A stretch of DNA of 64,000 nt from Dehalococcoidia bacterium (GTDB lineage: Bacteria; Chloroflexota; Dehalococcoidia; Lucifugimonadales; UBA3495): contig OZ244136.1 in assembly GCA_965215975.1 (NCBI GenBank), forward strand, positions 1,556,516 through 1,620,515. The letters are read 5' to 3'. The stretch's first letter is position 1; every line of letters begins with the position of its first letter. A program made the position numbers and the translations under genes. A model generated the notes under the pieces. It ran no database searches, was not told the origin of the DNA, and worked only from the letters and a program-made list of their open reading frames with translations. Shown piece after piece: positions 231-5,926 of the stretch.

Positions 231-2537
231 TTAAGTTATTGGGCCGAAATCAGGTGGCATAACTCTTCTACGTGATGCTGATTCGTAAGACGATGCTACG
301 TTCAGCAGCAGGTCCTCTTTTCCCGGCTCGGTCCGGAATACCAGCGAGAATGGCAGGCCAGGCGCGTCCAGCGCCGTGGGTTCAGTGGACGGCGCCGACT
401 CGTACCTTGTGCCATCTTCCGATAGCCGGAAGACCGGATCATAGGCGGTCTGCACATATCCTGCCGGTATCAGCACTTCGGTAAGCCCGGCGTTGGGGCC
501 GTTGGTGGACTCTTGCCGGATGTTGTTTCCGCCGCTGCTCTGGTTGGCCCCGCCGATTTTCGCCGGCGGATAGGGGGTATGCAGGCGGACCAGGGCATCC
601 AGCTTGTTCTCCAGGATTACCATCATATCCACCCGCCGCAGGAACTCCCGCAGCATGATCCGCTCGTCCACGCCCTGCCGGCCGCCCAGGGGGTTACGCA
701 GGTCAGTGACCTCCTCCCAGTTCTTGAAGGCCGCCCGCTGGTCGTCGCCCCAGAACTTGGAACGGGCATTGAGGGTGGGCCAGTCAATAATGGTCTCGGT
801 GTAGCCCAATGCCCGCCAGTCGGCGGCGCGACGGGTCAGGTACTGCTTTATGTGGTAGCGGAACGACATGGCCAGGATCTGGTCCTGGATGGTGGCCAGG
901 TCCAGGTTAACCGGCGGCTCAATCAGCCCGTCGGCCAGTTCCACGAAGTAGTCCACCGGCTGCATCTCGCCGGAGCCGAAGAAGACTCCGGGGGCAAACT
1001 CGGTGGGGACGATAACCTCGGCAAACTCCTTGAACACCGGTTGCCCGTCGGGGCCCAGCCGGTAAAGAATATCCGGCATGAAGACCGGCAACAGGCAGGC
1101 GATGGCCCGTCGGAAGTCCACCTTCATCGGCTCTATTTCCGGGTCGGCCGGGAAGTTCCGGTCTGAAGACTCCACCAATGTGGCGCCCAGGTGGTCCCGC
1201 AACACTTCCTTTATTTCGCGGTTAACCGCGTCCACGATTGGCTTCTCGGTAAGGGAACCGGCCGGGTAGGCCATGGACTCCCGGATAACGCCCAGGCGGA
1301 CGCCGGCAAGAGAACCGGCCTCGCCGGAACCCCGGGCATGGACCTGGTATGAAGGCAAGACTGAGGAACGGGGCACCGTAGTGAAGGGGTCGCGGGGGTC
1401 GTAATAGCCTTCCTCCGGGTCCTTCAGCGCGTCCAGCACCCTGGAGCAGTCCTGGATGGTGCGGGAGTGAATGCCGCTGCGGTCGCAATATATGTCGGCG
1501 CCTATGGCCCCGCCGTCAAACCCCAGCATGGCCTTGTGGGGCAGGATCAGGGCCACCGAATTGTGGTTGGCCGGCCCGCGGGTGGAGGCCCGAGTCTCCT
1601 CGCCCAGGCTGGCCATCACCATGTTGGTGCTGACCGACAGGGCCGACCCCGAGCTTGAACCCAGGGACGCGGAACGGGAGGTGTCGTAGGGGTTGGAGGG
1701 GTTGCCGCCCCAACTGCTGCGCTGGTATCCCAGCACCGAGGGCAGTATTTTATCGGGGGTGTGGCGCCCGCCGGGGTCGCCGGCACGACCGTTGTACTCG
1801 GTGTTGACCGCCTTGGCAAAGATAATGGCCCCCTTGTTTCGCAACTGCTCCACCAGGACGTGGTCGCGGGCAGGAAAGTCGATGTCGTATGCCGCATCGC
1901 CGCCGCCGGTGGACCGCATATCCCTGGTGTCGAAGGGGTCTTTAAAAGAGAAGGTGACACCGTACATGGGCAACGCTTCCAAATCCGGGTTGGTCCCGTA
2001 CTGGGCGTCCAGTTCCGCAGCCCGTTCCAGGGCGTCCGGGAACTGGCGGAAGTGTTCGCACACGGGAGGCGCATCTGGCGGGAGCGGCCCCTCCGAAGGA
2101 TGCCGGTCAAAGTCGCCCTTACAGGTAACCGACCGTTCACCGCGAATGTTCAGGGTGCCCAGGGCGTTCACCTGTCCCGCCTTCCGCCTAGCAACAATCA
2201 TCCCGTACTGCTGCTGCACCGTCGGGTCGGAGGCGGTGGGCTCCATCCGGCCAAATTCCAGGGGCTTGCCCTGGTACTTGTCCAGGTCGGGGAACAGTTC
2301 TGTTGCCTTGACCGTTTCAGTGGGAAACTTGATCGGGTCACCACCCCGCATGGTTCCAGTGGCCTCGGGGATGGACTCCCCGTTCTCGGTAACCAGCACG
2401 CTGGGTACGCCGTTGTATGCCCTTACCCGGTCAATGTAGCCCTGGACAATATCCACACAGGTGGTCTGGCCGGCCTGTATGGCGGCGTGCAGGTCTGCAA
2501 TGGTGGCCTCCTCCAGGCGGAACCGGTTTGCGCTCAT
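231..2537 (-). CDS. Amidase signature family protein
   Basis: FKDPF lysine, GSSSGS and GEETRASTRGP motifs; GGAGG before ATG at 2537. Confidence 0.85.
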   Translation of the reverse strand: MSANRFRLEEATIADLHAAIQAGQTTCVDIVQGYIDRVRAYNGVPSVLVTENGESIPEATGTMRGGDPIKFPTETVKATELFPDLDKYQGKPLEFGRMEPTASDPTVQQQYGMIVARRKAGQVNALGTLNIRGERSVTCKGDFDRHPSEGPLPPDAPPVCEHFRQFPDALERAAELDAQYGTNPDLEALPMYGVTFSFKDPFDTRDMRSTGGGDAAYDIDFPARDHVLVEQLRNKGAIIFAKAVNTEYNGRAGDPGGRHTPDKILPSVLGYQRSSWGGNPSNPYDTSRSASLGSSSGSALSVSTNMVMASLGEETRASTRGPANHNSVALILPHKAMLGFDGGAIGADIYCDRSGIHSRTIQDCSRVLDALKDPEEGYYDPRDPFTTVPRSSVLPSYQVHARGSGEAGSLAGVRLGVIRESMAYPAGSLTEKPIVDAVNREIKEVLRDHLGATLVESSDRNFPADPEIEPMKVDFRRAIACLLPVFMPDILYRLGPDGQPVFKEFAEVIVPTEFAPGVFFGSGEMQPVDYFVELADGLIEPPVNLDLATIQDQILAMSFRYHIKQYLTRRAADWRALGYTETIIDWPTLNARSKFWGDDQRAAFKNWEEVTDLRNPLGGRQGVDERIMLREFLRRVDMMVILENKLDALVRLHTPYPPAKIGGANQSSGGNNIRQESTNGPNAGLTEVLIPAGYVQTAYDPVFRLSEDGTRYESAPSTEPTALDAPGLPFSLVFRTEPGKEDLLLNVASSYESASRRRVMPPDFGPIT

Positions 2538-2709
2538 ATTTGCACCTCCCATGCTTCGGTAAACAAGAATCGATAAACAAGAAGTTGATGCTAGTTAACA
2601 GGGCAGCCACAAGGACTGCCCCGGAAATGGCTACCTGTAATTTTCTTCAGGAAGACCGTTGCGGACCTTCCTTCACCCCGATGTATGCCCCGGTGCGGGG
2701 AACCCGAAT

Positions 2710-3732
2710 TTAGTCAACCACCACCTGCTCATCCAGCAGAACGCCACCCTCGGTGTAAGCGATGGTTATGGGGTCGCGCTGCAGGGCGGCCTGGATGGCT
2801 TCGATTGGCATGCTGCGGGGGTTGCCCGGCGCAACTATGCGGCGCACCGCGTTGCGATGGACCACCCTGCCGTCGGCGGCGCTGCCCTGGGCCTGGTCTC
2901 GGCCTCCGGAGATGTTCACGCCCACTTCTACCTGAATATCCCGGGGGTCCAGGTTGTCGGACAGGGGCAGCAGGCGGCTCAAAGTGGTGGCCGTAGAAGC
3001 CGCCCAGCCGGCCTGGGCAGAAGGGAAGGGAGGGGGAATCAGCCCCGGGGAACTATGGCCTGCCATAAGAGTCCAGCGGCTGGTGTGGGTCAAGTTCTGG
3101 GTTTCCACATAAATTTTGGCCTCACCCTCGTGCTGCATGACGCCTTCTTCGTCGTACTCCTTGGTATCCAAAAGGTAGCTGCCGTGGACCGTTCCTGGCT
3201 GGATGACCGGCAGGGTGCCATCCAGGGTGGGCAGGTTGCCCAGGCTTGAGGGTATGGCGGTGATCTCGCCGGACCGCCACTGCACTTCGTCCTCGATTAC
3301 CATGGAACCTTTGGTCAGGGCCTGACCCACCGGGCAATAGCGAGATGCCCGCTGTAGCCGTACCCGTTCGCCCTCGGAAATGTTCCCTTTGAGGGTGACG
3401 ACTTCTCTTACGCCGAAACCGATGGAACCGGCGCGCTCGACAGGCTCAACCTCAAAGTCGACTTCAATATCTTCCAAGGGTATGCCGCCACGGTAGGCCA
3501 CGCCTACCACCGTGACAACCGTTCAAGCGGCCCAGGCGGCCACCGACAGGTATTGGGCCGGCGGACCGGCCAGGTCGGCGTTCAGGTTGGGTATGCCGGT
3601 AACGAAGGGCCAGGGCCCCCGGTTAATGTCGCCGGCGCCGATGAGGGTCAAGACCGCATCGTTGCCTATGGGTCTGGATACGATGGTCCTGCGGGTTTCC
3701 AGGGTTACCGGGGGCGGATTGTTCTGGGTCAT
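2710..3732 (-). CDS. OsmC/Ohr-like protein, probable selenoprotein (UGA at codon 70), 340 aa
   Basis: ORFs 3523..3732 and 2710..3510 are in one frame joined by TGA (AWAA-U-TVVTV); second Cys in RYCPV; AAGGAGG RBS only at 3732; hairpin right after the TGA. Confidence 0.8.
3489..3514 (-). promoter_or_regulatory. Putative bacterial SECIS element
   Basis: CACGGT-GGTAGGC-GTG-GCCTACC-GTG starting 9 nt after the UGA; perfect 7-bp upper stem with G-containing loop. Confidence 0.65.
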
Positions 3733-3936
3733 TGTGCCCTCCTTGTCGTTACATTGCAGCTGAGCCGATCGCTACTGGGCAGCTTGCAATCGGGGAAAAG
3801 TGGCAGTAGTTCGGAATACCCGCACTATAGGGGAGCGCTTGGCGGTGGTCAACCGGAGGATTGGGCGGATGCAGAGCCTGCCGTACACGGCAACGGCAGG
3901 CCTTGTTCTGTTCTATCCTGGAGGGGGGCAATATGG

Positions 3937-4699: not shown

Positions 4700-5926
4700 T
4701 TAAGGGTCAATGTCAAAGGGCCCGGGCAGTTCCAGTTCATCGCCAATTTCGCGGATGGCGGGCAGCACTTCCTGGTCCATCAACTGCAGGCAGCGCATGG
4801 TGGCTTCGTGTGAAATGGAGCCGTCGTTGGTCCACACGGCCAGGATACCGGGACGCACCTGCTCCAGTACCTCTCGCACCTTGCGAATGACGGTGTCCGG
4901 ACTGCCGATGACCATACGGTTGTCGTCTATCATTCCCTGGAAGGTCTCGTCGGTTACCGGGCCGGTTCGGAAGGGGTCGCTGGCCCTGGTTTCACGCACC
5001 TTGGCCTCGCGCTCGTCGTCGGCCCACATGTCCCGCGTGGCCCGGTTGTAACCAGGCGGGAAGGAGTATTCGCGGGGCATGGGAACGCGGCCAACGCCGA
5101 CCAACGCCTCCAGGAAGCCGCGACCTTCGACCTTCGCCTTTTCATCGGTGTCCTGCACGTGGATGGGCAGCATGTAGCCAAAGTTCTGGGGGCCGGCTTC
5201 GTAGCCGTGCATCCTGGCGGCGTCGCGGTAGATGTCCTGCATGTAGCCGAAGGTATAGGGCACGATCCCCAGGTAGAAGTAGGGATAGTGGTGTTCGGCG
5301 CACCAGGCCGCCGTTTCCGCGCTGCCGGTGCCCGGGATCCATACCGGGGGATGGGGCTTCTGCAGCGGCACCTGGAAGGGATTGACGTGCCGGAAGTGGT
5401 AGTGCTTGCCTTCCCAGCGGAAGGGGCCAGGGGTAGTCCAGGTCTTGATGACCAGATCGTGGGCCTCTTCGAACCGCTCGCGGTTGTAAACTGGATTGGT
5501 GTTGGTAGCCCAGCTTTCGGTGCCGCCGCCCCGCACAAAGCCGGACACCAGGCGGCCCCGCGATATGCAGTCGATCTCGGCCAGTTCTTCGGCAAGGCGC
5601 AGGGGGTTTTCGTGGATAGGCAGCGGGTTGCCCATCAATACAATCTTGGGTTTCTTGGTGATGCGGGCCAGGATGGCGGCCTCCAGGTTCATCGCGGCGC
5701 CCAGGCTGGTGGGGGTGCTGTGATGCTCGTTGAGCATCATCCCGTCGAAACCTATCTCCTCGCAGTACTGCCACTCGTCAAGGTAATAGTTGTACTGGTC
5801 GGCGGCCACCGCCGGATCAAAGTGGGAATTGGAGAAGGTGACGCGGTGAGCGCCGCCGGGACTGTTCTTAACGTCCTCTTCGGTGTAATTGAAGTAGGCC
5901 CGCTCGGTAAATCTCATTACGAACAT
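4700..5926 (-). CDS. LLM class flavin-dependent oxidoreductase
   Basis: NEHH, PLRLAEE, SRGRL, QKPHPP, IGSPDTV motifs. Confidence 0.92.
   Translation of the reverse strand: MFVMRFTERAYFNYTEEDVKNSPGGAHRVTFSNSHFDPAVAADQYNYYLDEWQYCEEIGFDGMMLNEHHSTPTSLGAAMNLEAAILARITKKPKIVLMGNPLPIHENPLRLAEELAEIDCISRGRLVSGFVRGGGTESWATNTNPVYNRERFEEAHDLVIKTWTTPGPFRWEGKHYHFRHVNPFQVPLQKPHPPVWIPGTGSAETAAWCAEHHYPYFYLGIVPYTFGYMQDIYRDAARMHGYEAGPQNFGYMLPIHVQDTDEKAKVEGRGFLEALVGVGRVPMPREYSFPPGYNRATRDMWADDEREAKVRETRASDPFRTGPVTDETFQGMIDDNRMVIGSPDTVIRKVREVLEQVRPGILAVWTNDGSISHEATMRCLQLMDQEVLPAIREIGDELELPGPFDIDP

Follow-up and report, generated by a model that had tools for sequence, protein, structure and literature searches.

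How should one read a gene whose frame is broken by a stop codon just at the place where the active-site residue is expected? This question is raised by a locus on the contig OZ244136.1 (assembly GCA_965215975.1) of a Dehalococcoidia bacterium, from which a stretch of 64,000 nucleotides (positions 1,556,516 to 1,620,515; hereafter the window, whose first letter is position 1) was analyzed. On the minus strand of the window, one single frame runs from an ATG at 3732 to a TAA at 2712-2710, with 340 codons before the TAA and one internal TGA. Comparison of the sequence with its relatives makes it very probable that this is one gene encoding a 340-residue selenoprotein of the OsmC type, in which two domains are fused and a single selenocysteine (Sec) site is kept, and Sec is almost certainly to be inserted at codon 70. 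The hairpin following that codon is supposed to be a selenocysteine insertion sequence (SECIS). The features needed for the argument are these.

2710..3732, minus strand: complete coding sequence, 340 codons plus TAA, with an in-frame UGA as codon 70
3730..3732, minus strand: start codon ATG, with an ATG 61-70 codons before the TGA in 23 of 23 homologous loci
3738..3744, minus strand: AAGGAGG as ribosome-binding site, ending 5 nt ahead of the ATG at 3732
3523..3525, minus strand: UGA predicted to encode selenocysteine (U70), aligned with the first (peroxidatic) Cys of OsmC/Ohr proteins
3492..3508, minus strand: SECIS-type hairpin GGUAGGC-GUG-GCCUACC, 7 bp, with a 3-nt loop starting with GU, 14 nt after the UGA
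3253..3732, minus strand: OsmC-like domain of the N-terminal half (aa 1-160), bearing the Sec/Cys pair (Pfam, AlphaFold, Foldseek and profile)
3334..3336, minus strand: codon of Cys133 in the motif Y-C-P-V, where OsmC/Ohr proteins have their second (resolving) Cys; invariant in alignment A2 of 24 sequences
2713..3195, minus strand: diverged C-terminal OsmC-like domain, aa 180-340 (hhalign and order of secondary-structure elements)

The reading frame and its TGA codon

Mechanical calling of open reading frames (ORFs) cuts the gene into a 69-aa ORF at 3732..3523 (minus strand), which starts with ATG and ends at the TGA of 3525..3523, and a 266-aa ORF at 3510..2710 (minus strand), which starts with GTG in the same frame. 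An initial annotation, made from the letters of the window, had described these two as in frame and separated only by TGA; the shared frame stands, but what lies between them is the TGA plus four sense codons, T V V T. It had also pointed out that only the upstream start has a ribosome-binding site and that an inverted repeat lies just behind the TGA. Both observations are borne out: AAGGAGG precedes the ATG at 3732 while no GGAG lies ahead of the GTG at 3510, and the repeat GGTAGGC-GTG-GCCTACC is located at 3508..3492, beginning 14 nt past the TGA. In the 23 homologous loci the 69 residues ahead of the TGA are conserved, and GGAG is found within 18 nt ahead of the matching ATG in 21 of them (by our reading). 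If the TGA is read through, the product of 340 aa contains ...SVAAWAA-U-TVVTVVGVAYRG..., that is, AAWAA-U-TVVTV around the UGA, and its match to Pfam OsmC (35.3 bits, cut-off 27.5) extends over aa 59-144 and spans the TGA. A search of this protein against NCBIfam returned no family at E up to 1, and a tRNA scan of the whole 64-kb window found none. Could the TGA simply be a mistake of assembly? This is excluded, because contigs from four sequencing runs of four studies hold the stretch and show zero differences over the TGA.

Is the organism equipped to decode a UGA codon as Sec? The genome, which is one contig of 3.97 Mb and 97.6% complete, gives profile matches above the curated cut-offs for selA (551.5 bits), selB (343.5 bits) and selD (389.7 bits), as well as for tRNA-Sec, selC (67.5 bits, anticodon TCA), so that the Sec machinery presupposed by the initial annotation is present. 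Its selD (L012, C1:843048-843971, minus strand) has itself one in-frame TGA in the context H-C-A-G-U-A-A-K, and the UGA is followed by the hairpin GGACCUG-GUA-CAGGUCC, which has 7 bp and a GU loop and resembles in shape the hairpin of the OsmC-like gene. TGA is otherwise a usual stop codon in this genome. It terminates 680 of 2345 frames of at least 300 codons, and reading through to the next stop takes a median of 21 codons after TGA versus 20 after TAG and 20 after TAA; since these lengths are alike, there is no general reassignment of TGA.

How well is the TGA kept in other genomes? In 61 related genomes, 23 near-full-length matches (50-100% identity) contain exactly one TGA each, at the identical column. 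A further 80 loci came from metagenome contigs (28 loci) and species-representative genomes (52 loci, in genomes labelled Dehalococcoidia, SAR202 cluster or Chloroflexota metagenome-assembled genomes); 75 of them reach the column, all with TGA, and five are partial and stop short of it. TGA is thus found in 98 of the 98 homologous loci reaching the column (67 distinct 72-nt sequences; identity down to ~47%; the loci from related genomes and those from species-representative genomes overlap), and TGC, TGT or TGG in none of the 98.

Outside the Sec-type family, Cys takes the place of the UGA. Single-domain OsmC-like relatives of the same phylum have either Cys (L049, L053, L054, L055 and L056) or TGA (L048 and L052) at the column. 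An exhaustive HMMER search for distant relatives among 1.84 billion representative proteins brought up two-domain proteins of 297-361 aa with 31-40% identity (P0122, P0130, P0134, P0140, P0131 and P0151), and all of them have Cys at the column. In alignment A5, Cys occupies the residue-70 column in all nine proteins aligned with the query, six of them two-domain, so that C70 is invariant there. The family profile, moreover, aligns aa 56-149 with the OsmC domain of the PDB chain 9wo1_A, by which the TGA column falls on the Cys of GLGAC-T and C133-P-V falls on C-P-V. The initial annotation had proposed to look among homologues for Cys or TGA at this column, and the alignments contain both; judged from these sequences, the classical exchange between Sec and Cys is found within and outside the two-domain form.

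The hairpin behind the UGA

The hairpin lies inside the coding sequence. It covers the last base of V75, the codons of V76-G77-V78-A79-Y80 and the first base of R81, and its loop is 21 nt past the UGA. Perfect hairpins of at least 7 bp in the same range are met after 807 of 107,887 TGA triplets genome-wide (0.75%). Is it kept by homologues? Among the 67 distinct sequences, the seven stem pairs are formed in 469 of 469 cells, and the loop begins with G and U in all 67. The stem is not a frozen sequence: pair 33-43 appears as AU (40), GU (15), CG (8) or GC (4), and pair 31-45 as GC (61), GU (4) or AU (2). Cells altered on both sides number 14 versus a shuffled mean of 2.2, and none of 500 shuffles reaches 14; the covariation score of the hairpin is 0.156 versus 0.069 in shuffles (0 of 500), and slid-partner controls are paired in just 16-60% of cells. 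Some of the compensated stems change the protein as well. GGUCGGC/GCCGACC leads to Y80D, GGUGGGC/GCCCAUC to Y80H, and GAUGGGC/GCCCAUC to V76M in addition to Y80H. The compensatory changes in a conserved stem strengthen what the initial annotation had called a SECIS-like hairpin.

The same region is singled out by codon usage. In 22 aligned genes (the frameshifted L041 was omitted), the normalised synonymous entropy of codons 75-80 is 0.059, while the gene averages 0.689; none of the 157 six-codon windows is lower, and the next independent one has 0.33. Just upstream of the hairpin, the equally conserved residues T71-V-V-T74 are written with 3 or 4 codons each, in free variation. Cys forms, the single-domain L054 among them, are free to depart from this stem. 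A lower stem pairing GCCGCU with GGCGGC was also proposed, and was rejected as it is not kept across loci.

Several results speak against a SECIS at this place and should be set beside these. The fold of the single sequence, 81 nt around the TGA, is unremarkable in energy (z -1.07; 30 of 200 shuffles are as stable), and therefore the weight rests on the comparison of homologues. Rfam gave 0 matches at gathering thresholds in the whole window. RNAalifold and pair counts found no double changes or covariation in the 23 closest loci, because the hairpin is invariant there. Pairs with double changes are two in the larger set, a number reached in 75 of 500 shuffles and not significant alone, and the cell counts given above are inflated by related sequences.

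What else could the TGA and the hairpin be? If the TGA were a true stop, the locus would be a pseudogene, or would hold two genes, one for a peptide of 69 aa and one for a protein of ~263-266 aa with its own start, as annotated. The rest of the genome does use TGA as a stop, and gene callers do give products of 222-279 aa in 119 of the 120 entries listed, with database cluster members of 255-269 aa. This explanation is nevertheless very improbable: the OsmC domain spans the TGA, the truncated product would be without the first strands and the start of the helix bearing the active-site residue, the GTG at 3510 has no GGAG before it, and the Cys-form homologues are continuous proteins of 321-361 aa. 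A pseudogene in particular is disfavoured because it would have lost the TGA or the 69 codons ahead of it somewhere among the 98 loci, whose identities are as low as ~47%, and all 98 keep them. Might read-through or an altered code instead put one of the standard amino acids (Trp, Cys or Gly) at the UGA? One protein argues for this and against Sec. P0042, a called protein of 332 aa from a 1362-nt contig with 66% identity, has W at the Sec column, and it is the sole full-length database call of the Sec-type family. A metagenome scan for its DNA gave 28 loci, the best with 77% identity and none being its own 1362-nt contig, and the loci nearest to it (77% identity) carry TGA. Metagenome gene callers do use tables in which TGA means Trp, and with TGA in the loci closest to it, the simplest and probable explanation of the W is a call made under such a table on a short contig. 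Trp at the column, which the initial annotation had named as a sign against Sec, is shown by one called protein and TGG by no locus. A standard amino acid would also have to be reconciled with the absence of TGC, TGT and TGG from the 98 loci, with TGA acting as a stop genome-wide, with the full Sec machinery and the conserved GU-loop hairpin at SECIS distance, and with Cys at the column in relatives, and hardly deserves credit. It might further be argued that the hairpin is not a SECIS and merely reflects a constraint of the protein on V-V-G-V-A-Y, or another role of the RNA. The encoded peptide VVGVAYRG is indeed highly conserved, and the stem pairs are invariant in the closest 23 loci. Such a constraint would, however, leave synonymous sites as free in the hairpin as in the equally conserved T-V-V-T codons, where it is only in the hairpin that they are frozen; where the stem has changed it has done so in both arms, even though residues of the protein are replaced thereby, Cys forms such as L054 are not bound to the stem, and selD as well as two other OsmC-type genes of this genome have a similarly shaped hairpin behind their UGA. 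There is accordingly little to be said for this alternative, and it is rated quite improbable.

With a Sec codon, then, the life of this gene product can be imagined as follows. Translation would start from the ATG at 3732, the hairpin 14 nt past the UGA would recruit SelB carrying Sec-tRNA(Sec), and Sec would therefore be inserted at position 70, after which the ribosome would go on to the TAA at 2710.

Two domains and a possible chemistry

Cys-type OsmC/Ohr hydroperoxide reductases are homodimers of ~140-aa subunits with two active sites. What is then the second half of a 340-aa chain? The C-terminal domain has W-A-A-S246-T and R-D320-P-I where the N-terminal domain has W-A-A-U-T and Y-C-P-V; this repetition without redox residues (GWAAS-TATTL at aa 242-251, and RDPI at aa 319-322 versus YCPV at aa 132-135) was already seen in the initial annotation and is confirmed. 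When residues 1-165 are aligned with residues 166-340 by hhalign, the halves match with 89.1% probability (E 2.2e-6, 111 columns), W-A-A-U/C-T being paired with W-A-A-S-T and C-P-V with D-P-I. AlphaFold2, run with the 24-sequence alignment, models the full chain with a predicted local distance difference test score (pLDDT) of 85.0 and a predicted template modelling score (pTM) of 0.89, and in each half the elements follow one another in the same order, with three strands first, then a long helix, a pair of strands, a pair of helices and a last strand. The profile-profile match and the model of the 340-aa product agree with the tandem OsmC architecture that had been proposed. Searched against PDB by Foldseek, the full model finds OsmC/Ohr chains at the top (1ml8, E 4.4e-4, and 1vla_A, E 5.9e-4, leading with TM ~0.6 by target; also 6ecy_B), the OsmC/Ohr matches having template modelling (TM) scores of 0.5-0.68 by target, E values of 4e-4 to 1e-2 and sequence identities of 14-21%. 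In three of five Cys-form homologues, Pfam OsmC matches two stretches.

The C-terminal domain is, by its sequence conservation, not decaying. Mean pairwise identity is 0.70 in this domain, 0.75 in the N-terminal domain and 0.53 in the linker. It has motifs of its own, EGEAK, GHSS and PPPFP, and its invariant residues in A2 are E202-G-E204, G225-H-S-S, P235-F-P, R293 and R297. Cys133 of the N-terminal domain, invariant in A2, is nearly invariant in A5.

The C-terminal half taken by itself is less convincing as an OsmC domain. Pfam matches it in none of 14 members, its model has low confidence (pLDDT 63.6, pTM 0.59), and Foldseek gives weak matches to this model, nearly all of them Ohr/OsmC chains (best E 2.9e-3, TM 0.43, root-mean-square deviation 11). 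OsmC proteins are intertwined homodimers. Poor folding of the C-terminal half alone is expected, though this is not a proof, because an intertwined half needs its partner. A pseudo-dimer arrangement of the two domains is held to be probable.

Some incomplete loci of the family should be mentioned here. In two genomes of the same taxonomic family, L046 (G025) and L047 (G033) match residues 272-335 only, with 53-59% identity in frames of 82 and 60 aa, and may be gene remnants or small fragments of the C-terminal domain. In the same genus, L041 and L051 (G001:C5:2298227-2299242) represent one gene in two overlapping pieces, residues 1-263 and 229-339, with TGA and hairpin intact; the split comes from a frameshift that is either genuine or introduced in assembly.

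What would such a protein do? Sec70 is predicted to sit on the long helix at the place of the peroxidatic Cys of OsmC/Ohr proteins, and Cys133 in C-P-V at the place of the resolving Cys. The selenolate of Sec70 might reduce a hydroperoxide and become a selenenic acid, which Cys133 would resolve to a selenenylsulfide, and the enzyme would be regenerated by a dithiol reductant, such as a lipoyl protein or a protein of thioredoxin type. The C-terminal domain, with Ser246 and Asp320, would most likely replace the second subunit of the OsmC homodimer, leaving a single active site, and perhaps it supplies a part of the active-site wall. By analogy with the OsmC/Ohr family, peroxidase chemistry with such a reductant is held with fair confidence.

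It might be possible that the selenoprotein carries out another thiol or selenol chemistry, such as persulfide transfer, lipoyl-linked transfer or redox sensing, with the C-terminal domain as a substrate site. Two points tell against a peroxidase: the catalytic Arg/Glu of Ohr/OsmC were not located in the protein, and the closest solved relatives, 1ml8 and 1vla, belong to what we take to be an OsmC subgroup with poorly defined substrates. These best structural matches are uncharacterised OsmC-like proteins from structural genomics. The C-terminal domain, in addition, is conserved as strongly as the N-terminal one (0.70 versus 0.75), and its invariant motifs exceed the needs of a mere scaffold. 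On the other hand, neither redox position of the OsmC/Ohr peroxidase site has been lost, the characterised family members are peroxidases according to the PDB names of the Foldseek matches, and Sec at the peroxidatic position has parallels in the selenoperoxidases listed in Table 3 of PMC1088965. Another chemistry is, on balance, unlikely.

If Sec insertion, the domain arrangement and peroxidase chemistry are all taken together, a larger picture can be drawn, one that as a whole stays tentative and is rather doubtful. The protein would be an asymmetric selenoperoxidase with one active site, born by duplication and fusion of an OsmC subunit. Its redox-less copy would have gained EGEAK, GHSS, PPPFP and R293/R297 and turned into a docking side for substrate or reductant. 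Together with neighbouring flavin (luciferase-like) monooxygenases, it would remove organic hydroperoxides in Dehalococcoidia/SAR202, which would be formed while recalcitrant organic matter is oxidised. The SECIS stem, finally, would dictate the sequence of the protein at residues 76 and 80.

As to the neighbourhood, a 773-aa gene of the amidase family lies downstream on the same strand (231-2552, minus strand, 157-nt gap), and a luciferase-like monooxygenase gene lies upstream (4700-5926). Within 1.5 kb, an amidase homologue is found in 40 of 74 loci and a luciferase-like one in 26 of 74, including distant marine loci, some contigs being counted more than once among the 74. Such synteny, which is all that is seen here, would fit a function alongside flavin monooxygenases. 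Among the matches listed, the amidase gene is the more conserved of the two, with 82-96% identity (over its first 430-480 residues) versus 75-96% for the selenoprotein gene in the genus. Upstream of the ATG, one further feature was noted.

3824..3852, minus strand: promoter-like site TTGACC-17-TATAGT, ~90 nt before the ATG, weak and a consensus match only

The promoter and terminator scan gave this one promoter-like site upstream versus 0.9 expected from shuffles, which is no more than chance, and none of the sequencing runs listed for the stretch is given as RNA, while one of the runs compared over it may be RNA.

How many other genes of this genome use UGA for Sec? Two further OsmC-type genes, both outside the window, have a TGA and a GU-loop hairpin. 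L139 (C1:260339-260782, minus strand) would encode 148 aa. Its first site (G-I-T-A-C-A-V) keeps Cys, and the TGA occupies the second one, of C-P type (R-R-U-P-L-Y-G), and is followed by the hairpin GGUCGC-CGUG-GCGACC; one internal TGA is present in 26 of its 27 matches among 40 relatives (counted as presence inside the match, not at the column). To have Sec in the resolving and not in the peroxidatic place, as the L139 sequence suggests, would be unusual. L138 (C1:3952129-3952644, plus strand), 172 aa in length, has its TGA in A-I-L-F-U-E-M-T (UxxT) and the hairpin UUGAGCG-GUA-CGCUCAG 13 nt past the UGA, with an internal TGA in 23 of 23 matches among 40 relatives, and a candidate CxxU gene adjoins it on the opposite strand (C1:3951223). 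A genome scan for TGA with a GU-loop hairpin in open frames gave 113 raw hits, many of them false, and also missed real cases; as the 340-codon gene itself was missed through the limit on wobble counts, the scan gives no count of the selenoproteome. Its candidates include four adjacent thioredoxin-fold genes with UxxC (C1:2361423-2363643), three D-U-G-S-C genes (at 622979, 1730731 and 2241116), W-U-P-Y-C at 763975 and C-U-x-x-C at 3444245 (minus strand), which are likely to be further selenoprotein genes. One read-through peptide, APTSSGP...U...GSRRPQLVPRPG (43 + 72 codons), recurs at ~25 places scattered over the chromosome, on either strand; this is probably a dispersed repeat or mobile element. 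The two OsmC-type TGA genes and the UxxC and UGSC candidates, along with the gene described here, suggest a heavy reliance on selenium in the Dehalococcoidia/SAR202 group, which bears on the trace-element ecology of the ocean.

Relation to known selenoproteins and OsmC proteins

Why was this protein not seen in the databases? The gene is wrongly annotated throughout the clade. The first 70-odd residues are cut off in the public calls because the Sec codon looks like a stop, just as the initial annotation had predicted that gene callers would mishandle it, and what is called is a product without its active-site residue, so that function prediction and proteomic searches miss the real protein. 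Correcting this systematic error is one use of the present analysis. If the pseudo-dimer reading is true, the gene is also an instance from nature of a homodimeric thiol peroxidase turned into a pseudo-heterodimer that has only one Sec site, and the fused form could serve to study why a single site suffices and what the silent half is for. The replacements Y80D, Y80H and V76M, moreover, make it a clean example of a SECIS RNA and a protein helix constraining each other.

The superfamily is a known one, and selenoproteins of the OsmC type have been on record since 2005. OsmC-like selenoproteins were described from the Sargasso Sea with three sequences, COG1765 and the motif UXXT (Zhang, Fomenko and Gladyshev, 2005; PMC1088965), appeared again with five sequences in the Global Ocean Sampling (GOS) study (PMC2398784), and are listed in a 2026 review (PMC13188914). 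Like these, as far as the published text describes them, the present gene has the OsmC fold (PF02566), Sec for the first active-site Cys, a hairpin whose small loop contains G, and a marine metagenomic origin. It differs in its motif: U-T-V-V-T is UxxxT while the tables of PMC1088965 and PMC2398784 give UxxT, which L138 with U-E-M-T fits better. The published entries are described by COG1765/PF02566 only, and no two-domain form is mentioned in these descriptions. A literature search, with supplements and figures outside its range, gave no description of two OsmC domains in one chain and none of Sec use in SAR202; within that range, a fused two-domain, single-site OsmC-like selenoprotein of Dehalococcoidia/SAR202 was not found described.

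How does the hairpin compare with known bacterial SECIS elements? A small apical loop containing G is characteristic of them (PMC1088965). Like the SelB-bound SECIS of the E. coli fdhF type, the present hairpin is part of the coding sequence, comes immediately 3' of the UGA and has a small loop with G and then U. Unlike it, the stem is very short, with 7 bp, a 3-nt loop and no conserved lower stem, and its binding by SelB is a prediction.

At the level of the protein, the likeness to Cys-type OsmC/Ohr reductases (1vla, TM0919; 1ml8; Ohr, 6ecy; E. coli OsmC, 1nye) lies in the fold and in the two redox positions, and the difference in one chain of 340 aa with one active and one redox-less copy and with Sec for the first Cys. 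Nearest in architecture are the two-domain Cys forms, P0122, P0130, P0134, P0140 and P0151, each named 'uncharacterized OsmC-like protein', which have C...CP in the N-terminal domain and share L-A-A-S-T and D-P in the C-terminal domain, with 31-40% identity over nearly the whole length. They differ in having Cys for Sec, and because Cys replaces Sec, they need no SECIS hairpin and are called at full length.

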